From Candidatus Palauibacter australiensis (GTDB lineage Bacteria > Gemmatimonadota > Gemmatimonadetes > Palauibacterales > Palauibacteraceae): DNA of 64,000 nt. The stretch is taken from NCBI GenBank assembly GCA_026705295.1, contig JAPPBA010000155.1, positions 670-64,669 on the forward strand, read 5' to 3'. How positions within the stretch are numbered: position 1 is the first letter of the stretch; every line of letters starts with the position of its first letter. Shown here piece by piece: positions 10,845-50,611 of the stretch. Under the pieces are notes generated by a model, which did not search any database, had not been told where the DNA came from, and was given only the letters and a program-made list of their open reading frames with translations. The position numbers and the translations under genes are program-made.

Positions 10845-12236
10845 ATGGAGACGGGATGCGGGCGAAAAGCTCCGGGGCGCGGTTGTGAACGCCGGGGTGC
10901 GTCCGTGAACGTTGGAGCGCGGCTCACGGAGGCGGCGGCTGGCGTCGCGCTCGCGGCGGCGCCTCTGCTCCGGCGCGCCCGCCCGCACATCGCGCGGGCG
11001 GTGGAGGTCCGGCGGCGCGGTGGCGCGGAGCTGGCCGCCTGGGGCCGGGGCCGGGAGCCCGGGCCGCTCGTGTGGCTCCACGGCGCTTCCGCTGGCGAGC
11101 TGCTCGGCGCGGCGCCGGCCATCCGGCATCTGCGCGGCGCACGGTCCGGATCGCGCGCCGGCGGGCGCGTGCAGCTCGTCGTCACGCACGGCTCGGCGTC
11201 AGGCCGGGCGGCGCTCGTGTGGCTCGATCCGGATCACTCCGGGGCGCCGCCGCTCGACCGCGCGCGCGACTGCGATGCGGCGTTCGCCGCCGTGCGGCCC
11301 GGCCTCCTCGTGTTCGCGAAGCTGGACGTGTGGCCCGGACTCGCGGCGGCGGCCGCGCGGGCCGGAGTGCCCGCCGCGCTCATCAACGGCACTGTCCGCG
11401 ACGGGAGCCGCCGCTCCGGCGCCCTCGCCCGCCGGCTCTTCCGCGCGTCGTACGCCGGGCTGGACGCGGTCGGCGCCGCGAGCCCGGAGGACGCACGGCG
11501 ACTCGAAGCGCTCGGCGTTCGGCCGGGGGCGCTGGCGGTGACGGGGGACGCGGCGTTCGACCTGGCGCTCGAACGGGCCGACCGCGCTCGGAGCGACGGC
11601 TCGGCCGCGTCTTTCCGCGCCGCGCTCGGAGCGGCGGACGGAGCGGCCCTGCGGCTCATTGCCGGCTCGACGTGGCCCGCGGACGAGAAGGCGTTGCTCG
11701 ATGCCGCGGCGGCCGTGCGGCGAGGCGGCGGCCCGGGATGGCAGCTCGTGATCGCGCCGCACGAGCCGACCGCCGCGCACGTCGACGCCCTCGTCGCGTC
11801 GTGCACGGCCCGCGGGGAACGCGTCATCCGCTGGAGCCGGATCGGCGAGGCCGCCGCGGAGCCCGACGCCGGACCCGACGCCTCCGTCATCGTCTTCGAC
11901 GAGGTCGGCCGGCTGGCCGAGCTGTACGCGGCGGGCGACGTGGCCTATGTCGGCGGCGGCCTCGGGGGCACCGGGCTCCACAACGTGCTCGAGCCCGCCG
12001 CAGCCGGGCTGCCCGTCGTCTTCGGCCCGCGCCACGACCGGGCCGACGCCCGCGCCCTCGCGGCGGCCGGCGGCGGGCTCGTCTCTCCGGCCGGCGCGCT
12101 CGCGGACACCCTGACCGGGCTGGCCCGCCCGCCTCGCCGCCAACACCACGCCCGGGCCGCCCGCGCGTTCGCCGAGGCGGGCGCCGGCGCCGCCGACCGT
12201 ACGGTGGAACTGCTGCGCCCCCTCTGGCCGTCCTGA
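10845..12236 (+). CDS. waaA: 3-deoxy-D-manno-octulosonic acid (Kdo) transferase
   Basis: VWLHGASAGELLGAAPAI matches WaaA (I)WLHxVSVGE, and GGGLGGTGLHNVLEPAAAGLPVVFGP matches GGSL..GGHNPLEAAA. The start could instead be the in-frame GTG at 10905. Confidence 0.85.
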   Translation: METGCGRKAPGRGCERRGASVNVGARLTEAAAGVALAAAPLLRRARPHIARAVEVRRRGGAELAAWGRGREPGPLVWLHGASAGELLGAAPAIRHLRGARSGSRAGGRVQLVVTHGSASGRAALVWLDPDHSGAPPLDRARDCDAAFAAVRPGLLVFAKLDVWPGLAAAAARAGVPAALINGTVRDGSRRSGALARRLFRASYAGLDAVGAASPEDARRLEALGVRPGALAVTGDAAFDLALERADRARSDGSAASFRAALGAADGAALRLIAGSTWPADEKALLDAAAAVRRGGGPGWQLVIAPHEPTAAHVDALVASCTARGERVIRWSRIGEAAAEPDAGPDASVIVFDEVGRLAELYAAGDVAYVGGGLGGTGLHNVLEPAAAGLPVVFGPRHDRADARALAAAGGGLVSPAGALADTLTGLARPPRRQHHARAARAFAEAGAGAADRTVELLRPLWPS

Positions 12237-34078: not shown

Positions 34079-35185
34079 ATGCCGTACAGCCCTAGAGCGG
34101 ACCTGACCTGCGGTGCGTTGCTGCTCCTGGCGGGCCTCCTCGCTTGTGGGAGTGAGGGCGACTTCACGGAGTTGGGAGTTGCGGACGACCGGGAGGTGGT
34201 TGACGTCTCCGCGTCGCTGGAGGCGCTCATCGGGTCCGGCGTGCGAATCGGGGCGGAAGTGAACCCTGATTCGGAGGCCGAGGCCTTTCGGCGGATTCTC
34301 GATGCGCAGCTGACGCCGGACGGCCGCTTCGTCGTGGCGCTCGATGCTAGTCCGCCATTCGTGCGTGTCTTCAACCCCGACGGATCGCTCGAAGCCGCTT
34401 TCTTGCCGCGCGGCGAGGGACCGGGCGAAGCCGAGAGTCCCGAGGCGCTGGCGGTGTCGAACGACCGCATCCTCGTGCTGGAACCCGGCCGCGCCTCGGT
34501 GCTCACATTGGACGGGGAACTCGTCGAGGACCGGCCGATCGATTTCTGGCCGACATCTGCCGCGCGTGGCTGCGCGGACGGTTTTCTGGTCTACGGTCCC
34601 GGCGCCTACGACGATGGGTCCATCGTCTGGCTCCGGTCATTCCAGGCCCTCGAAGAGACTCCGGTCTCCATCCTCGAGGGCGCGAGTCCGGCGGAGGTTT
34701 CGGCCTACCGGAGCCGCGACCGGGGCCGCCCGAGCCGTCTCGCTCGCGCGGGAGGGCTGGCCGTACTCCACCACGACGGACGAGACCCCCCGGAAACGTT
34801 CACGCTCTCCTGCCCCGGCGTCCGCACATCCACCGTGGACACCGTCCCGGAGTTCACGGAACCTGTGGTTGGCCGCGAACAGAGGGTCACGGGCGGAGCC
34901 GTGCGGACGCTACAACTCGGGAGCTACATCTTCACGGGCGCCGCGATCCTGAATCGAACACCGATCCTGTCCGCGTGGAAGATCGTCGAATCGGGAACGG
35001 AGTCCGGAACGCACTTCATCCCGGCTCGCGGCGGATCTCCCGCCTCCTACACGAGCAGCAGGGTCTCGCTGCTGGACGCCCAGCCTGGTCAAGCGGTGCT
35101 CCTCGAGGCCAGCTTTCCCGTCCCGCATATCATCATGGTGGACTACGCTGCCTTCGTACGGGCGCTGGGGGTGGAACCGCACTAG
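34079..35185 (+). CDS. beta-propeller-like lipoprotein, paralog 2
   Basis: Lipoprotein signal ALLLLAGLLACGS and family motif PRGEGPGEAESP. Repeated strand-like segments follow. It is similar in layout to 32873..33981 and 36805..38007. Confidence 0.7.
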   Translation: MPYSPRADLTCGALLLLAGLLACGSEGDFTELGVADDREVVDVSASLEALIGSGVRIGAEVNPDSEAEAFRRILDAQLTPDGRFVVALDASPPFVRVFNPDGSLEAAFLPRGEGPGEAESPEALAVSNDRILVLEPGRASVLTLDGELVEDRPIDFWPTSAARGCADGFLVYGPGAYDDGSIVWLRSFQALEETPVSILEGASPAEVSAYRSRDRGRPSRLARAGGLAVLHHDGRDPPETFTLSCPGVRTSTVDTVPEFTEPVVGREQRVTGGAVRTLQLGSYIFTGAAILNRTPILSAWKIVESGTESGTHFIPARGGSPASYTSSRVSLLDAQPGQAVLLEASFPVPHIIMVDYAAFVRALGVEPH

Positions 35186-36804: not shown

Positions 36805-38007
36805 GTGTTCACGAAGAGTGGACCTATTGGGCTCGTCTGCACGGTCACGTTCGGGGTCGCGGGCTGTGACGGCGGCGCCGAGGCCGTCGGGACGGCGAGA
36901 ACGCTTCCGGTCGTGACTGCGACTCGTGTGCGGCAATTGACGGAGGCCGAAACCGCGGGGCCGTTGTTCCGGCCGGAACATGTGAGTCGTGTCGGCGATG
37001 ATCTCTGGATTCTCGACGCGGGCAACTTACGTATCGTGATTCGCACACCCGACAGCGTGTACGCGGTTGGACGGGAGGGCGATGGCCCCGGGGAGTTTCG
37101 GCTGCCGCTGAGTCTGTCCCCGAACATCACGGGCGGCGCGACGGTGTGGGATCGTATCGCGCGACGCCTGACGCGGTTTCGACCGAACGCCGAAGTAGGG
37201 GAGACCATCGCAGTGGAGCAGCGGCCCGGCAGGATGGCGCGCGAGGTATTCGACTTGGGCCATCGGCGGCTCGTGATCTCCGGAGTCGTCCTGGATGCGA
37301 TGAACCCGCCCGCAGAGGACGATGAACCGCCGACCGCCATCGAACTCGAGCACTTCGACTCCGATGCGATCGACACCCTCGGGCACGTGCCGCCGTGGGG
37401 TCCTGTTGGCGTGTGGTCGGGCGATGGAAGGTCGATGAGCGTGTCCGCGTTCATCCGGCCGTTCGATGCGCCTCCACACGCGGATGTGAGCGCGGCCTGC
37501 GGAGGGCTGGCGGCAGTGTCGGTTGGGGGAAGGCGGCTCGAGATCGTCCTGATCGACAGGTTCGGCGACGTGGTCGGTGCGATCCGGGACTCCCTGCGTG
37601 GGCCGAGAATCACGGAGCAGGAGGTGGACGCGTTCTTCTCGACGTTCTTCCCGGACGCACGTCAGGAGGAGTTCGATCTGAGAAACCTCCTGCCCGTACC
37701 GGAGCGGCATCCAGCCGTGCACGATCTTCAGTTCATGTCGGATGGCCGCGTGTGGGCACGGTTGGATCCGGAGTCCATACTGCTGGAAGCGAATCGGCGG
37801 GAGCACAGCCGCTGGAGAGTGTGGACGCTCCGGAGGGTCGACGATGTCGTAGAGGCTTCTCCACCCTCCGACGTTCTCCTACCGCACCTGTTCACCCCGA
37901 ACGAAGTCTTGCGCGACACGATCTGGGGTGTGCGGCTCAACGAACTGGGAATCCACACCATCGAAGGCTTCGTCGTGGAGGAGTGGACCGGCTTAGGGGG
38001 CTGCTAG
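36805..38007 (+). CDS. beta-propeller-like lipoprotein, paralog 3
   Basis: The GTG start lies inside the motif CGGAGTGTTCAC, which is shared with repeat copy A. It has the lipoprotein signal GLVCTVTFGVAGC and the family motif GREGDGPGEFRLP. Confidence 0.7.
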   Translation: MFTKSGPIGLVCTVTFGVAGCDGGAEAVGTARTLPVVTATRVRQLTEAETAGPLFRPEHVSRVGDDLWILDAGNLRIVIRTPDSVYAVGREGDGPGEFRLPLSLSPNITGGATVWDRIARRLTRFRPNAEVGETIAVEQRPGRMAREVFDLGHRRLVISGVVLDAMNPPAEDDEPPTAIELEHFDSDAIDTLGHVPPWGPVGVWSGDGRSMSVSAFIRPFDAPPHADVSAACGGLAAVSVGGRRLEIVLIDRFGDVVGAIRDSLRGPRITEQEVDAFFSTFFPDARQEEFDLRNLLPVPERHPAVHDLQFMSDGRVWARLDPESILLEANRREHSRWRVWTLRRVDDVVEASPPSDVLLPHLFTPNEVLRDTIWGVRLNELGIHTIEGFVVEEWTGLGGC

Positions 38008-38543: not shown

Positions 38544-38999
38544 TCACTTGGAGCGCACCACCCGGACCGTACGGTAAACGCGAACCGTGTCGCCCGGGGG
38601 CTCGTGCGGGGGCCACGAAATCCGGTCCAGTCCCGTCACCGTGATCTCGCCTGTTCCGGCACGATCGAATCGCACGTAGATCTGCCGAAGATCGTTACCT
38701 ATCCCATGGTCCGGACAACTCGAGCTGTACCGCCAGTTCATGTACGGTGTGATCGTCGCGTGAAGCCGCGTCGTTTCGGTCTCCGTTCGTCCAGGCTCCA
38801 CGTTGCAACCAAAGAACGTCCGAATCGATACCGGGAACGACTGATCCACACGGACCGTGTCCGGTACGGAGACAACCGATTCCATGTCACCGTAGATCGC
38901 ACCGACGATCTCACCGCGCTGCGGTTCGGATGAGACCACGCCACCGCAGCCGGCCATGAGACCGGCTGCGGTGAGCGTCAAGGCACATCGTTGAATCAT
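38544..38999 (-). CDS. small lipoprotein, hypothetical (coupled to the S1 protease gene)
   Basis: 151 aa with the lipobox LTAAGLMAGC. It has two Cys residues spaced 30 residues apart in a strand-rich domain (VPDTVRVDQSFPVSIRTFFGC...SSSC). Its ATG overlaps the protease TGA in an ATGA at 38996..38999. Confidence 0.7.
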   Translation of the reverse strand: MIQRCALTLTAAGLMAGCGGVVSSEPQRGEIVGAIYGDMESVVSVPDTVRVDQSFPVSIRTFFGCNVEPGRTETETTRLHATITPYMNWRYSSSCPDHGIGNDLRQIYVRFDRAGTGEITVTGLDRISWPPHEPPGDTVRVYRTVRVVRSK

Positions 39000-40501
39000 T
39001 GCTGATCGCCTCCATCATCAGCGACCACGGCCTGCCACACGCTGTAGGGGACGAAAAACGCCAGGTGTTCCTCGCCCTCCGTGTTCATCGAACCCAGATC
39101 CTCCTCGATATTCGCAATCGGCGAGTAGAAAGGTGACGCGTCGACGTCGTCCTCGCTAGAATTGCTATTGGTGAATCTGCCAACGTGGAGGCCAAAGAAT
39201 CTTCCGTCGCTGGCAAACACCGGTCCACCGCTATCGCCCCCCGTGCGGAGGTAATTCGCAAGATTCTGACACCGGACTCCGTAATCGCGCGCAGGGCTCG
39301 GCCAGTTGTAGATGTCCACACAATCATGCGTGACTCTACCGTGTGTCCGACCGGAGAACGCTCCGATCTTGATCAAGCTCTGACCAGTGACCTGCGTGGT
39401 GGGAATCTCGCCACCTTCGGATGTCATGACATACAGGCTGTCGCCATGCTTGTGGTTATGCTTCCAAGCATCGAACGGTGACCCGATCAACTCGCCACCC
39501 GACTCGACGATCTCATCCGCGTCATCCTTGGTGGTCGCAATCCATCCACGCGCGAATTTGTCGTTGGAGTCGTCCTGACCGAACAACGCGGCGTCGGCCC
39601 ACCGACAGCGAGCGGGAGGCGTACCGCCACCGTTAATCGAACATGTCTGCTGGGGATCCACGAGTTCATACCCTAGCCGGTCACTCGTGTTCGTGCCGGA
39701 TTGGTAGATCGGAAGATCGGTGTCGAGGGATGCGAAGGCGTCGTCTCCTGCGCAGTGAGACGCAGTGACATACCGCTCCGACGAACCCATCGTCACGCCC
39801 AACATGAGTGTACAACGGTCAACGCCAGTTGTATCTCCGTGACGCACCATGATACCACCGAGAGTCCTGTTGAACCGATGTCGAAGCGAGTGGTAAGACT
39901 GCGCGGATCCGCCCTCGTATCTGATGGGTGGCGCTCGATCCGGCTCAGCCCGACCAGAGACCGTGGTTGCGATCGCACCGTCTGGTATACCAACGGTTCG
40001 CGCCAGAGATTGCACAGCCGAAGCAGCGGAAACGCTTACCAAGCCGACCAGAAGCCGGTTGTTCTTCTGATCGATGTCGAGGTACGCAACGTCGCTCCGT
40101 GCACCGAAGAGTCCGGTGATGTTCTCCTTCCATCCGATGAGCTGGGAAAACGTGTAGGTCACCTCCGTGTACCGACGGGAACCGCCCGTACTGGACAGCT
40201 TGCTGTCGATTTCCGATCTCGTGACGTTTGCCACCGCTGTCTGCTTGGTCAGATTGGTCAGCGCAGTCACCGCGTCCCCGCGCTCATCAATCCAGTAGCC
40301 ACCGAACTCCGGTACGATCTGACTGATCTCAAAGAACCGCTTGTCGGTTCCCATAAGGGCATCCGCCGATACATCGGCCAACAAGATCGGTTCGTTGCTG
40401 GCTTCTGCCATAGTCGGACGTTCGAAGTCCGGCGCGGCGAGAGAATCGGAATCCGGGTAACACGCCTCCTGGCCCAACACGATCCCGATCACTAGCAGCA
40501 C
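38996..40501 (-). CDS. alpha-lytic / streptogrisin-type (S1E) serine pre-pro-protease
   Basis: The catalytic triad context is YVTASHC (His), RWADAALF (Asp) and GGDSGGPVF (Ser). Two prodomain-like repeats are present (FGGYWIDERGDAVTAL; VAYLDIDQKNNRLLVGL). It looks lower in G+C than its neighbours. The N-terminus is uncertain: the GTG at 40501 gives only a truncated-looking signal peptide. Confidence 0.85.
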   Translation of the reverse strand: MLLVIGIVLGQEACYPDSDSLAAPDFERPTMAEASNEPILLADVSADALMGTDKRFFEISQIVPEFGGYWIDERGDAVTALTNLTKQTAVANVTRSEIDSKLSSTGGSRRYTEVTYTFSQLIGWKENITGLFGARSDVAYLDIDQKNNRLLVGLVSVSAASAVQSLARTVGIPDGAIATTVSGRAEPDRAPPIRYEGGSAQSYHSLRHRFNRTLGGIMVRHGDTTGVDRCTLMLGVTMGSSERYVTASHCAGDDAFASLDTDLPIYQSGTNTSDRLGYELVDPQQTCSINGGGTPPARCRWADAALFGQDDSNDKFARGWIATTKDDADEIVESGGELIGSPFDAWKHNHKHGDSLYVMTSEGGEIPTTQVTGQSLIKIGAFSGRTHGRVTHDCVDIYNWPSPARDYGVRCQNLANYLRTGGDSGGPVFASDGRFFGLHVGRFTNSNSSEDDVDASPFYSPIANIEEDLGSMNTEGEEHLAFFVPYSVWQAVVADDGGDQQ

Positions 40502-40622
40502 ACCAAGAACGGCGTGAAACCGCCGCGGCCACTGCTTGCGCGGTACACCTGACTGCTACCTATACGCGGGCGACTGTGAACGGCCGGAAAGTTGGCGGGC
40601 GTCCGCAGAGGGCCGAGTAGGT

Positions 40623-41276
40623 CTAGCGTTCGTCCTCGGTGTGCAGGAGTCCGGCCTCGAGCGCGAAGCGCACGACCTCGCGGCGGGTGTGAAGGCCCAG
40701 CTTTGCCTTGGCGCGGGCGAGATAGCCCTCGACGGTCTTGGGGCTGAGACCCATCTCCTTGCCCGTCTCGGCAGCCGAAAAGCCGCTCGCGTAGAACTCG
40801 ACCGCGGCAAGCTCGCGCGCTGTGAGCACGTCGGGTCCCGTCTCGCGGCTCGAATGGTCCTGCGTCTTCCGTCGCGCGAGCAGGGCCGCCGCCTGTTGGG
40901 GCAGGTAGGAGTGCCCGTGCAAGATGGCTTCGATGGCGCCGATGAGATCCGTATCCGCGGCGGACTTGTTCAGAAAGCCCGCCGCGCCGGCCTTCAGGGC
41001 GGGCACGACGTAGTCATCCTCGTCGTGGATCGTGACGACCAGGACCTTCGCTCCGAGTCCAAGCCCGGTGATGCGCCGCGTCGCCTGGACTCCGTCCATG
41101 CCGGGCAGCGCCAGATCCATGATGACGATGTCCGGTTCCAGCGTCCGGGCTTTCTCCACCGCTTCCTCGCCGGAGGATGCCTCGCCCACCACCTCCACGT
41201 GCTCCGTCATCTCGAGCAACGCCTTCAGGCCGGCGCGCACCACGGGGTGGTCGTCGACCAGCAGCACCCTCACCAT
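40623..41276 (-). CDS. LuxR/NarL-family response regulator
   Basis: The receiver domain reads VRVLLVDDHPVVRAGL...IVIMDLALPGMDG. The C-terminal HTH reads LTARELAAVEFYASGFSAAETGKEMGLSPKTVEGYLARAKAKLG. Confidence 0.92.
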   Translation of the reverse strand: MVRVLLVDDHPVVRAGLKALLEMTEHVEVVGEASSGEEAVEKARTLEPDIVIMDLALPGMDGVQATRRITGLGLGAKVLVVTIHDEDDYVVPALKAGAAGFLNKSAADTDLIGAIEAILHGHSYLPQQAAALLARRKTQDHSSRETGPDVLTARELAAVEFYASGFSAAETGKEMGLSPKTVEGYLARAKAKLGLHTRREVVRFALEAGLLHTEDER

Positions 41277-42295
41277 CCGCCGCGATCCCTCTCGTCTTCC
41301 GGACCTACGGCCGGCACGGTGACCCGAATCGTGGTCCCCCGGCCCGGCGCCGTATCCACGGAGAGGCCGCCTCCGACCAGCGCCGCCCGTTCGTGCATGC
41401 TGGTGAGACCCTTGTGACTATCGAACTCGAACCCGCAACCCTCGTCGCGGATCTCCGCGATGACCGCCCCGCCCGCCGACCGGAGCGTCACCGTCGCTTC
41501 AGTGACGCCCGCGTGCCTCTCTGCGTTGGTCACGGCTTCCTGAACGATCCGGTACAGGGCGAGGGCGGCGGCCGCGTCCAGTTCCTCGTCCACTCGGTCG
41601 AGGTTCGCGTCGACCGTGAATCCATGCACCTCGCCGATGTCCCGAAAGACGGACTCGAGCGCGGACGAAAGCCGCCGGCGTTCCAGTTCCGGCGGCAGCA
41701 GCCCCCGGATCATCCGCTTCACGCCGCGGATCGTGTCATCGATCTCGCCGGCGATCTGCGCCCGCGCCTGCTCCCTGTCCCCCGCCGTCGGCTCGGACGC
41801 TAGTAGCTTCACCCTGATCTTGAGGGCCGCCAGGTACTGGAGGAACTCGTCGTGCAAGTCGCGGGACAATCGCTTCCGCTCATTCTCGATGGCGGTCACC
41901 ATCGCTCGGGACATTTGCCGCATCCGTTTCCAGCCCGTGATGTCCCGGACCGTGCAGATCACATGCTCCTGACCCGACGCCAGTCTCCCGGGGCTCAGGC
42001 TGATCTCGACCGGAATGGTCGTGCCGTCCCGGCGCAACGCCAGCAACTCGAATCCCTGCCCCATGGGACGGGCACGCGGCGTCTCGTTGTAGTGTCGGCG
42101 GTGCCGCTCATGCCGGGTACGGCTAGCTGCGGGAACCAGCCGCTCCACGGGGTAGCCATCCATCTCCTCCCGACTCCAGCCGAACATCGCGACGGCCTGC
42201 GGGTTGAGGTCGCGAACCGTCCCTTCCGAATCCACGATGAGCATCGCGTCCGGCGAGGCGTCGAAAACGGCCCTATAGTCCCTCTCGGTCAGCAC
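41270..42295 (-). CDS. cytoplasmic PAS-domain sensor histidine kinase (HisKA_3 type)
   Basis: The PAS domain reads YRAVFDASPDAMLIVDSEGTVRDLNPQAVAMFGW, the H-box ERKRLSRDLHDEFLQYL, and the ATPase part GCGFEF...GLTSMHERAALVGG. No TM segment is present. It overlaps the response regulator gene by 7 nt. Confidence 0.9.
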   Translation of the reverse strand: MLTERDYRAVFDASPDAMLIVDSEGTVRDLNPQAVAMFGWSREEMDGYPVERLVPAASRTRHERHRRHYNETPRARPMGQGFELLALRRDGTTIPVEISLSPGRLASGQEHVICTVRDITGWKRMRQMSRAMVTAIENERKRLSRDLHDEFLQYLAALKIRVKLLASEPTAGDREQARAQIAGEIDDTIRGVKRMIRGLLPPELERRRLSSALESVFRDIGEVHGFTVDANLDRVDEELDAAAALALYRIVQEAVTNAERHAGVTEATVTLRSAGGAVIAEIRDEGCGFEFDSHKGLTSMHERAALVGGGLSVDTAPGRGTTIRVTVPAVGPEDERDRGGW

Positions 42296-48977: not shown

Positions 48978-50611
48978 CGCGCCCCGCGGTCCAGGCGCGC
49001 GACGACCTGACGCCCTTTGATCCGGCTGCCGTCGAGGCCGCGGACCACGGCGTCGGCGGCCAGCGAATCGATGTCGACGAGGGTGAAGTTCTGCCGGATG
49101 TCGATGCGGCCGATCTGCCCGCCCGCCACGGACGTTTCGCCGGTAATCGCGCCGACGAGGTCGCCGGGGCCCGCGCCGTCGCGTTTGCCGACGCCGACGA
49201 AGACCTTGGTCCAGGTGGGGCGAGTGGCGCGCCGGGCGCTCCTGTCGGGAGGCGCGGTCGCGGCGTCGCCGGGCGGTGCGCCGCCGGGTGCGGCCTCCCT
49301 CTCCCCGGCGGCCGGCCGGTCCGCCGCCCGGAGGAGTCCGGCGAGGGCGGCGGCCACGCGCGCGGCGCCGTGCTCGCGGATGAGAGGGGCGAGGAGGAGC
49401 GCGCCGCTCGCGAGGTCCTGCTGCTCCAGCGCGTCGGCGACGCGGGCCCGGAAGGCGGCAACGTCGTCCATGAGCGCGGGGTCGGCGGACTCGGCCAGGG
49501 GGGCGACCCGCAGCCCGGCCCGCAACGCCGTCAGCTCGAGCTGCCGTTCGTGCAGCGAGTCGACGATGGCGTAACAGCGCTCGGCAGCCGCCGCCGCGCG
49601 GGCGAGGGGCTCCGGCGCGGGCGGCAGTTCGAACGCGACCGCATGGGCGGCGGGGTCGACCTCGCCCCACCCCCCGACCCGCACCGCGTCGCCGCCGTCC
49701 GTCTCGGCAGCGTCGCCGTCCGTCTCGCCCGCGCCGCCCCCGGTCTCGGCCTCTCCGTCGTCCGTTTCCGCCGTGCCGGCTGCGTCGGACCCGGCGACGC
49801 GCAGCCCGGCCAGCGAGAGCGCGGCGCTCACATCGGCGACGGCGTCGTGGGCTGTCTCGATGCTGACGGCGGCCGCTCCGCCCCGCGTGAGGTCGTGAAG
49901 CAACTCGGCCACGCGGGCCAGCCGCCCCTCGCGCGTCGCCCGGCTCGCGACCGCGATCGCAGGGCCGGCCGCGCGGCCCGCCTCCGACTCCCCGGCCCGC
50001 GACTCGGCGAACAGTTCGTTCGGCCACCGGCGCGCGCGCGGCAGCCAGCGCTCGACCAGCTCGTCGAACGCCGCATCCCGGGCGTGGGTCGTCGCGATCC
50101 GACGGGCCCCGTCGCCCGAGGCCTGCACCACGGCCTCGACGGCCGCCCGCGCCGGCTCGAGCGCACGCACATCATCGAGGACCAGGGTGCACAGCGCCGC
50201 GGCCGGGATGTCGCCCCTGCGCACGCCCTCCAGCAGCACCGCCGGAGGCCCGACCAGGATCGGCGCCCGCGCCACCGCCCCGCCCGCGGCGCCCGGCACG
50301 ACGACGACCTCGCGTCCGGCGGCCCGCGCGACGGCATGCATGCCCGCCGCGCAGCGCCGCGCGCGGTCCACCGTTGCGGTGAGCACGAAGGCGCGGCCCT
50401 CCGCCTCGCCGGCGGCAAGGTCCCGCACGGCGGCAGCCGCGTAGAGGGCGGCAAGGCCCGCTCCCTCGGCGGCGATGAGCGCGAGGTGACGCCCCCGCTC
50501 GATCGCGCCCGAGAGGGTCTCGAGCGCTTCCGGCTGCGGCGGGACCGTTCCCGCCGCGGGCTCCGACTGGTCCTGGTTCAAGCGCGGGATCCCGAAGAAC
50601 GAATTGGACAA
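48974..50611 (-). CDS. DEAD-box-helicase-like protein with degenerate catalytic motifs and a DbpA-type C-terminal RNA-binding domain
   Basis: The motif I position reads AAEGAGLAAL (no GKT), the motif II position reads LVLDDVRAL (no DEAD), and the motif III position reads IATTHA. The C-terminal GDLVGAITGETSVAGGQIGRIDIRQNFTLVDID...IKGRQV matches the DbpA/RRM-like domain. It overlaps the K+ channel gene in an ATGA. Confidence 0.65.
   Translation of the reverse strand: MSNSFFGIPRLNQDQSEPAAGTVPPQPEALETLSGAIERGRHLALIAAEGAGLAALYAAAAVRDLAAGEAEGRAFVLTATVDRARRCAAGMHAVARAAGREVVVVPGAAGGAVARAPILVGPPAVLLEGVRRGDIPAAALCTLVLDDVRALEPARAAVEAVVQASGDGARRIATTHARDAAFDELVERWLPRARRWPNELFAESRAGESEAGRAAGPAIAVASRATREGRLARVAELLHDLTRGGAAAVSIETAHDAVADVSAALSLAGLRVAGSDAAGTAETDDGEAETGGGAGETDGDAAETDGGDAVRVGGWGEVDPAAHAVAFELPPAPEPLARAAAAAERCYAIVDSLHERQLELTALRAGLRVAPLAESADPALMDDVAAFRARVADALEQQDLASGALLLAPLIREHGAARVAAALAGLLRAADRPAAGEREAAPGGAPPGDAATAPPDRSARRATRPTWTKVFVGVGKRDGAGPGDLVGAITGETSVAGGQIGRIDIRQNFTLVDIDSLAADAVVRGLDGSRIKGRQVVARLDRGAR

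Follow-up and report, generated by a model that had tools for sequence, protein, structure and literature searches.

Locus layout and base composition

The window analysed in this study is a 64,000-nucleotide (nt) stretch of contig JAPPBA010000155.1 (assembly GCA_026705295.1) of Candidatus Palauibacter australiensis (Gemmatimonadota). On its minus strand, four neighbouring genes encode a sensor histidine kinase, a response regulator, a predicted pre-pro-serine protease related to alpha-lytic protease and a small predicted lipoprotein (Table 1), of which the last two represent a robust, clade-specific association of two larger protein families. The order Palauibacterales has no cultured members and is abundant in sponges as well as in marine sediments; proteases are not mentioned in the respective report (PMC10469786).

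All four open reading frames (ORFs) are located on the strand and at the coordinates given in the original prediction, which was made from the sequence alone. The same applies to the 7-nt overlap of the kinase and regulator genes (ATGGTGA), to the gap of 121 nt between the regulator and protease genes, and to the ATGA at 38996..38999 (-), in which the stop codon of the protease gene overlaps the start codon of the lipoprotein gene. The latter overlap represents a predicted translational coupling of the protease and lipoprotein genes. The protease of the window is deposited as MCY3600869 (locus OXN85_12960) and labelled "hypothetical protein", assigned in nr to Candidatus Palauibacter australiensis, and near-identical copies are present in assemblies of Ca. 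P. rhopaloidicola.

Table 1. Features of the four-gene locus, with positions in the window and strand. aa, amino acids; HTH, helix-turn-helix; AF2, AlphaFold 2; pLDDT, predicted local distance difference test.
Feature	Position	Strand	Description	Basis
Sensor histidine kinase	41270..42295	-	341 aa; soluble, no transmembrane segment evident	
NarL/LuxR-type response regulator (receiver and GerE HTH)	40623..41276	-	217 aa	
Regulator-protease intergenic region	40502..40622	-	Shortened by deletion	Alignment with L005
S1E-like pre-pro-serine protease (predicted)	38996..40501	-	501 aa as ORF; GTG start	
Remnant of signal/anchor segment	40460..40501	-	MLLVIGIVLGQEAC	Alignment and lipobox scan
Protease pro-region	39902..40369	-	~aa 45-200; two alpha/beta lobes	AF2 secondary structure
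Mature chymotrypsin-fold domain	39077..39871	-	~aa 211-475	Invariant and nearly invariant columns of two alignments
Catalytic triad	His249 39755..39757; Asp303 39593..39595; Ser424 39230..39232	-		Residues checked in the window
Cys230-Cys250 pair		-	In the mature domain of the protease	Conserved alignment columns
Subfamily-specific insertion and C-terminal tail			Protease ~aa 325-356 and aa 476-501	Low pLDDT
Lipoprotein partner (predicted)	38544..38999	-	151 aa; ATG start	
Lipobox LMAG-C18	38946..38948	-	MIQRCALTLTAAGLMAG-C18 signal peptide	
Lipoprotein C65 and C95	C65 38805..38807; C95 38715..38717	-		Invariant columns

The protease and lipoprotein genes differ in base composition from their surroundings, with a G+C content (GC) of 0.584 and a G+C content at third codon positions (GC3) of 0.677 for the protease gene, and of 0.612 and 0.704, respectively, for the lipoprotein gene. 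Their joint span shows the lowest GC of the window, approximately 3.5 standard deviations under the mean of 0.698. For the regulator and kinase genes, GC3 amounts to 0.872 and 0.839, respectively, and for the native neighbours to 0.90-0.93. A low-G+C module of four genes had been proposed, of which the foreign character of the protease-lipoprotein pair is retained, but the kinase and regulator genes are close to the native GC3; a foreign composition is shown by the two-gene cassette 38544..40501 only, and not by the whole module. At the other extreme, 1-kb bins of high G+C content occur at window positions 11001-12000 (0.79) and 49001-50000 (0.78), compared to a window mean of 0.70.

Pairing of the protease and lipoprotein genes

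Loci L001-L021 were gathered with alignments of the protease subfamily, and their six-frame translations were scored with hidden Markov models (HMMs) of both families. In these loci, every protease match is followed downstream on the same strand by a lipoprotein-family gene, regardless of whether the protease is full-length, frameshifted, split by an insertion sequence (IS) or reduced to a C-terminal remnant. The pairs include P0002, P0005, P0006, P0007, and P0009, the latter at 32% protease identity; in case of P0009 (L015), the lipoprotein homologue is the second gene downstream. At each coupled junction inspected, start and stop overlap, with ATGA in L004, L009 (two), L010, and L013 (two), and with 1 nt (GTGATG) in L012. 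A co-occurrence analysis had been suggested together with the original prediction, which lipoprotein homologues that are nowhere adjacent to proteases would have refuted. The prediction withstood this test within Candidatus Palauibacter, where a lipoprotein gene lies downstream of all protease copies found, in most cases overlapping by 4 nt. Across nine pairs, the identity matrices of proteases and lipoproteins are strongly correlated (Mantel r = 0.92, p = 5e-5), with a mean identity of 0.42 for the lipoproteins versus 0.52 for the proteases, so that the lipoprotein diverges faster.

As a negative control, 63 metagenomic loci of a distant soil protease branch were inspected, 46 of which contain more than 600 nt downstream of the protease gene. 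A lipoprotein-family gene was found in none of these 46 loci. Among four divergent lipoprotein-family members, the one in L024 follows an IS-truncated protease remnant and represents the single further remnant-plus-lipoprotein pair in L022-L024. The homologue in L022 stands alone, the homologue in L089 precedes a gene for an unknown secreted protein, and in L088 (L088:2083-4408), P0134 and a divergently transcribed gene for a Peptidase_M14 carboxypeptidase are 272 nt apart. As one case of linkage to another peptidase clan, the latter could hint at a broader protease-partner role.

Family, fold and active site of the protease

A search of a large protein database yielded 103 relatives of the protease, none of which carries a family name. 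Pfam gave nothing above threshold for the protease (Trypsin_2 with 17.3 bits compared to a cut-off of 27.6), NCBIfam gave no match, and no Pfam pro-domain family matched either the protease of the window or any of 40 family members. As a single sequence, the protease matched PDB chains marginally, i.e., alpha-lytic protease and a Lysobacter lytic endopeptidase with E of approximately 0.07. With a family profile built from an alignment of 40 relatives, the top PDB matches are exclusively members of MEROPS family S1E, namely Thermobifida fusca protease A (2pfe, 1.4e-12), a Lysobacter lytic endopeptidase (5mrr, 1.4e-11), alpha-lytic protease (approximately 1e-10), and the streptogrisins SGPA and SGPB (1e-10 to 1e-9). 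With E of 8.5e-4, 2pro_A, a chain of the alpha-lytic pro-region, was likewise found with this profile.

The AF2 model of the protease (pLDDT 82.6) points in the same direction: in a Foldseek search, the Lysobacter L1/L5 proteases and alpha-lytic protease rank at the top, with a template modelling (TM) score of 0.79-0.82 relative to the target and E of 3e-12, at approximately 16% identity in the structural alignments. H249 (in TASHC) and D303 are invariant and S424 (in GDSGG) is nearly invariant in the 40 family members, and several cysteines are nearly invariant in the same alignment. The assignment as an alpha-lytic (S1E)-type protease with an alpha-lytic-type pro-region, which had been made without database searches, is hence borne out at profile and fold level only, i.e., with matches of the profile to PDB chains, but with nothing above threshold in Pfam and NCBIfam. 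The intact H/D/S triad was verified in the window and is conserved in the 40 relatives. Two prodomain repeats had been postulated as well; in the predicted structure, the pro-region indeed comprises two alpha/beta lobes, each with the order H-E-E-H-E and a pLDDT above 90, but no internal sequence repeat was detected by BLASTP. Taken together, profile and model support the view that the protease is a distant, uncurated branch nearest to MEROPS S1E.

Cys14 of the protease (40460..40462) is situated at the position of the lipobox cysteine of distant relatives, where it is part of a non-canonical QEAC motif. Since a canonical lipobox occurs in the distant relatives and (E/Q)EAC in the Palauibacter-type proteins, the protease may be lipidated or, with equal likelihood, carry a signal anchor.

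The lipoprotein family

The lipoprotein of the window possesses a lipobox of the L-x-[GA]-C type, the cysteine of which is conserved in the alignment, and lipidation is thus predicted; 32 of 44 family members fit a relaxed lipobox pattern. P46, C65, C95, and G115 are invariant in all 44 sequences. Lipobox or signal segments and the invariant cysteine pairs suggest that both the protease and the lipoprotein are extracytoplasmic.

No match to the lipoprotein was obtained in Pfam, NCBIfam or the PDB sequences. Word-indexed searching retrieved six relatives and profile searching 48, and in an HMM scan of 1.84 billion representative sequences, the number of clusters amounted to at least 2,225 (E<=1e-3). 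The original prediction had recognised no family for this protein; its family is not a small orphan one but very large and uncharacterised, and is mostly not linked to proteases outside the clade. Its members are nearly all stand-alone proteins of 135-160 aa. P0152, P0154, and P0155 (260-277 aa) contain two matched stretches and represent tandem two-domain versions. Domain fusions in the longer members were not informative, with a single sub-threshold match to PLipase_C_C.

The AF2 model of the lipoprotein (pLDDT 84) is an all-beta sandwich. Foldseek revealed no significant fold in the PDB (best E 0.03, TM approximately 0.4), and the weak matches are generic sandwiches of the Ig, macroglobulin, CARDB, and PKD type. 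A likeness to ecotin (MEROPS I11), considered due to the similarity of GCN...SCPD to DCNLH...MACPDG of its reactive loop braced by a disulfide, was rejected: the family profile matched no ecotin chain at E<=10, 11 family members had no Pfam match at E<=10, and none of the Foldseek matches listed for the model is ecotin.

Disruption, mobility and selection

In other genomes, the cassettes are often flanked by IS elements, and the protease gene is frequently disrupted. In L012/L020, it is split by insertions of IS110 and IS256. In L018, a DUF772/DDE (DDE_Tnp_1) transposase gene is located between the regulator and protease genes, and the protease lacks the signal region. A closed 4.29-Mb Ca. Palauibacter genome contains two cassettes (L012:1632-4895 and L018:3977-5449), both with IS elements between the regulator and protease genes; this genome was scanned with two peptide patterns, by which further copies could have been missed. 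Since these IS insertions and the deletion of the window (see below) affect one and the same interval, the region between regulator and protease looks like a hot spot for disrupting protease expression.

A different kind of rearrangement is given by P0010 (L004:2314-3141 and L014:247-1074; also in L013/14), a 275-aa ORF the PAS part of which is 87-88% identical to aa 1-139 of the kinase of the window and is fused in frame to the C-terminal approximately 140 aa of a protease, followed by a lipoprotein gene with a 4-nt overlap. Here, a deletion apparently removed the remaining kinase gene, the regulator gene and most of the protease gene. Furthermore, the proteases of L004b and L013b contain a premature stop and frameshifts.

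Most copies of the lipoprotein gene retain an intact start and lipobox. An intact lipoprotein gene next to a truncated or absent protease gene was observed in L001-3, on the minus strand of L012, and in L013 (position 10081), and at both disrupted loci of the closed genome the lipoprotein is intact as well. Extra lipoprotein genes, either stand-alone or in tandem, were found in L001-3, L004, L009, L012, and L013. The ratio of nonsynonymous to synonymous substitution rates (dN/dS) amounts to 0.28-0.49 for the lipoprotein, with 0.49 for the stand-alone paralogue, and to 0.12-0.21 for the protease. In L001-L003, the lipoprotein paralogue is preceded by five minus-strand genes without Pfam match (615, ~540, 119, 136, and ~100-148 aa), and the genes downstream of it differ in each contig. 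With the same genes upstream and differing genes downstream, a rearrangement breakpoint is therefore placed directly after the lipoprotein gene.

Compared to L005, all four genes of the window are part of an approximately 4.3-kb block (roughly 42,000-37,700) of 99.4-100% identity, with flanks of 89-98% identity. Since this near-identical block is shared by two metagenome-assembled genomes (MAGs) with diverged flanks, the four genes resemble a single unit of recent exchange, though only the protease and lipoprotein genes are compositionally foreign. A second block of 100% identity to L005 occurs at window positions 34328-34827, and the two blocks suggest that recombination or transfer is frequent between populations of Palauibacter.

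On the plus strand, convergent with the lipoprotein gene, the window contains a 400-aa ORF (36805-38007) with a lipobox-like N-terminus (FGVAGC) and without match in Pfam or NCBIfam. It is kept beside the cassette in L005-L008 and is just 96% identical in L005.

The 5' end of the protease gene

In the window, an in-frame TAG stop (40556..40558) is situated 19 codons upstream of the GTG at 40501, with no ATG, GTG or TTG in between, and the intervening codons encode a basic n-region, reading ...PRKQWPRRFHAVLG. In an alignment with L005, 190 nt are absent from the window exactly at this TAG. The deletion junction lies at 40559|40558, where the T at 40558 creates the in-frame stop, and reads CGTATAGG|TAGCAGTC; it was seen in no other locus retrieved. 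L006 shows 100% identity to the window; since its contig terminates within the protease gene, it cannot serve to confirm the junction. The three independent assemblies of L006, L007, and L008 all break in the 3' part of the protease gene (approximately window 39179-39250), which suggests strain heterogeneity or assembly problems induced by paralogues at this locus.

The long form is present in L005, a 349-kb scaffold, and in L017 (Ca. P. rhopaloidicola RHO1_bin_50). Its ATG start is preceded by the Shine-Dalgarno sequence GGGAG, and its 522-aa product, deposited as MCZ0935920, begins with MGKQSGVPRKQWPRRFHAVLG (L005; P0296). Because this N-terminus (MGKQSGV...) aligns residue for residue with that of approximately 55%-identical homologues (MRKQRDV...), the long form is considered ancestral. 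An insertion, e.g., of a miniature inverted-repeat transposable element (MITE), as the origin of the long form was rejected on the basis of this alignment and of the conservation of the leader at paralogous cassettes. The odd N-terminus of the protease, which had been noticed before, is real insofar as the GTG at 40501 leaves no n-region, but it results from the 190-nt deletion and is no peculiarity of the protein. As the 190-nt absence is unique to this assembly, the 5' anomaly represents a deletion allele or an assembly artefact and not a property of the protein. In the strain of the window, the protease is probably silent or mislocalised, with the lipoprotein ORF intact. Annotation of the protease gene should follow the 522-aa form.

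The deleted segment carried the ATG, the Shine-Dalgarno sequence, the first protease codons and an upstream leader. In L005 (L005:4250-4440), this region comprises three direct repeats GGGG(N)TTTCC, spaced by 23-24 nt, and a subsequent leader of approximately 120 nt. Its nucleotide sequence is conserved in front of paralogous cassettes (L005, L009b, and L012), the proteases of which are only 50-57% identical. In case of L013b, a single repeat is kept, which looks like the product of repeat-to-repeat recombination. For the leader, no Rfam family was matched and RNA folding was not better than for shuffled sequences (z-score -1.2), and a structured RNA or riboswitch was thus dropped. Scans for sigma-70 promoters and intrinsic terminators remained at chance level. 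The leader is plausibly a promoter/operator region and a candidate target of the adjacent regulator.

The two-component system

The kinase matches PAS (7e-19, aa 4-124), HisKA_3 (2e-10), and HATPase_c (4e-12) in Pfam, and the regulator Response_reg (7e-30) and GerE (6e-11). A HisKA_3 and HATPase_c kinase with a receiver and GerE/LuxR regulator is the composition of the NarL/FixJ class. The regulator scores under every NCBIfam equivalog cut-off. The best PDB matches of the kinase PAS domain are FixL heme domains (8e-17) and DosP (1e-12), and the histidine of its SRTRHE motif aligns with the histidine of FixL DRSRHD, the proximal heme ligand of FixL. Compared to the FixL equivalog of NCBIfam, the kinase scores 69.6 at a cut-off of 850. 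The PAS domain may bind heme, and the kinase represents a possible oxygen or redox input to the module.

Orthologues of the kinase and regulator (70-84% identity) are located upstream of the cassette at four loci, i.e., the locus of the window, L005 and L017, that of L018, that of L012/L020, and, as remnants, that of L013/14/21 and L004. The regulator orthologues upstream of the paralogous cassettes in L018 and L012/L020 are 83-84% identical.

Proposed function of the lipoprotein

Due to the coupling and co-divergence of the genes, the predicted location of both proteins at the membrane outside the cytoplasm, and the constrained persistence of the lipoprotein next to a dead protease, we tentatively propose that the lipoprotein may well bind the mature protease and protect the envelope of the producer as a cognate inhibitor or immunity protein. 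As in toxin-immunity layouts, the candidate immunity gene is a downstream coupled gene with extra copies, one of them an orphan in a MAG that also contains an intact pair. In the proposed mechanism, the two-component system, possibly sensing oxygen or redox state through heme, would drive the protease-lipoprotein operon via the repeat-bearing leader. The pre-pro-protease would be exported, tethered to the membrane, folded with the help of its pro-region as in alpha-lytic protease, and then released. The lipoprotein would be made in step with the protease, be anchored in the membrane on the same side as the protease and bind the mature enzyme, by which it would most likely shield the envelope of the producer itself.

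Several observations weigh against this proposal. By sequence and predicted structure, the lipoprotein resembles no known inhibitor family or fold, and the AprI/Inh, staphostatin, and chagasin folds are absent from the best 50 of 730 weak PDB matches. No diversifying selection was found for the pair (dN/dS below 1), i.e., no sign of an arms race. Co-divergence is expected from co-inheritance alone. Many of the disrupted protease genes are located on contigs that are rich in IS elements or were assembled from long reads at low coverage, and general decay of the genome or errors in assembly could be responsible. The "orphan" lipoprotein P0106/P0298 (OXJ54_00085; 81% identity) belongs to the same MAG as an intact pair, which weakens its interpretation as a mark of an immune-only genome or population. 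Finally, three of the four divergent members lack an S1E-like protease neighbour, and the 2,225 clusters of the family are mostly unlinked to S1E proteases. Since the family is very large and three of four sampled distant members occur apart from S1E enzymes, its general role is not specific to S1E.

Alternatively, the lipoprotein might be a non-inhibitory partner, either a factor for docking or retention at the surface or a helper in maturation or export, which we regard as unlikely. Coupling and co-divergence are equally compatible with such a partner, both proteins appear to be membrane-anchored, the fold is a generic binding-type beta-sandwich without similarity to inhibitors, and selection is purifying rather than diversifying. 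A dedicated helper should decay after loss of the protease, yet intact and constrained lipoprotein genes are still found beside truncated proteases and as stand-alone paralogues; the persistence beside a truncated or absent protease therefore speaks against a pure maturation factor. Moreover, the own pro-region of alpha-lytic-type proteases is known to suffice for their folding.

An independent function of the lipoprotein in the envelope, with the protease as a mere neighbour in a compact operon of this clade, is given a similarly low probability. The sheer size of the family, the distant members without an S1E-like neighbour (one next to the M14 carboxypeptidase, one next to the unknown secreted protein), and the existence of stand-alone paralogues are in agreement with it. 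Mere neighbourhood is difficult to reconcile with an adjacency that holds for every protease locus in the clade, even where protease identity is as low as 32%, with preserved start-stop overlaps and a partner kept through IS insertions and deletions, with the tight co-divergence, and with the complete absence of the partner from the 46 loci of the distant soil protease branch. That the cassette, here and in many relatives, is a decaying remnant of mobile DNA without current function appears quite improbable: loss of the start codon and leader by the 190-nt deletion, the IS insertions (L012/L020, L018), the PAS::protease fusion (L004, L013/14), the premature stop, the frameshifts, and the low G+C content would fit decay, but both coding sequences are intact in the window, dN/dS is low for both genes, a complete version is present in the sibling assemblies L005 and L017, and the near-identical 4.3-kb block between diverged MAGs suggests a recent sweep or transfer and not neglect.

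Returning to the lipoprotein as cognate inhibitor or immunity protein, it is tempting to speculate that the cassette is an antagonism module of sponge symbionts, interbacterial or for self/non-self distinction, with a secreted bacteriolytic protease as effector, a periplasmic immunity lipoprotein and a FixL-like oxygen switch, in which the protease is repeatedly lost due to IS insertions or deletions, the window being one case, while immunity is kept. We consider this extended scenario doubtful; if true, the 2,225-cluster lipoprotein family would constitute a class, so far unrecognised, of proteins that are anchored in the envelope and confer immunity to proteases or inhibit them.

Independent of its function, the pair links two uncurated families, which have no Pfam or NCBIfam model and public records labelled "hypothetical" throughout, as one conserved, mobile cassette in a widespread uncultured marine symbiont lineage. 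As far as known to us and from the literature searched, a coupled lipoprotein partner of an alpha-lytic-type protease is undescribed. If the lipoprotein is a cognate inhibitor, it would be, to our knowledge, the first dedicated self-protection partner described for alpha-lytic-type proteases and would open a first way to the function of a family with over 2,000 sequence clusters. Oxygen fluctuates in sponge tissue, and the FixL-like kinase would in this case tie the deployment of the protease to oxygen.

Comparison with known systems

With the S1E enzymes (alpha-lytic protease, Lysobacter L1/L5, streptogrisins A/B, and Thermobifida protease A), the predicted protease shares the chymotrypsin fold, the TASHC...D...GDSGG triad, the cysteine pair, and, by prediction, an N-terminal pro-region of approximately 155 aa with two alpha/beta lobes. 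It differs in the size of the mature domain, which comprises approximately 265 aa compared to approximately 198 aa in S1E, and the subfamily adds the insertion at ~aa 325-356, the C-terminal tail, the cysteine at the lipobox position and the coupled lipoprotein gene. We know of no coupled lipoprotein gene for S1E enzymes, and none was found in the literature.

A second, weaker likeness is given by rice NARROW LEAF 1 (NAL1). Weak Pfam matches to Nal1_C occur in 13 of 40 protease members (best 1.9e-5), the protease profile matches NAL1 chains at 1.8e-5, and Foldseek aligns approximately 400 columns with E of 1e-10; the TM score is just approximately 0.5, and over the catalytic domain, the match is weaker than that to S1E. 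In plants, NAL1 occurs as an oligomer in the cytoplasm or nucleus, without signal peptide or lipoprotein partner.

The two-component system is comparable to FixL/FixJ, with a FixL/DosP-like PAS domain and the aligned histidine in the kinase, and a receiver with LuxR/GerE domain in the regulator as in FixJ and NarL. Differences concern the dimerisation domain of the kinase, which is HisKA_3 (NarX/UhpB/LiaS class), the phenylalanine (GQGFEL) that aligns with the arginine of wild-type FixL (GIGRIV), and the scores of both proteins, which are far under the FixL and FixJ equivalog cut-offs of NCBIfam.

Finally, the pair is similar in architecture to operon-encoded protease-inhibitor systems, i.e., serralysin AprA-AprI/Inh, staphopain-staphostatin, and streptopain-Spi, as well as to the periplasmic ecotin, with a small all-beta extracytoplasmic protein that contains a disulfide and is encoded directly downstream of a secreted protease, with which it is co-expressed. 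Although no similarity of these inhibitors to the lipoprotein of the window was detected in sequence or fold, it is this parallel in architecture on which the proposal of a cognate inhibitor is based.

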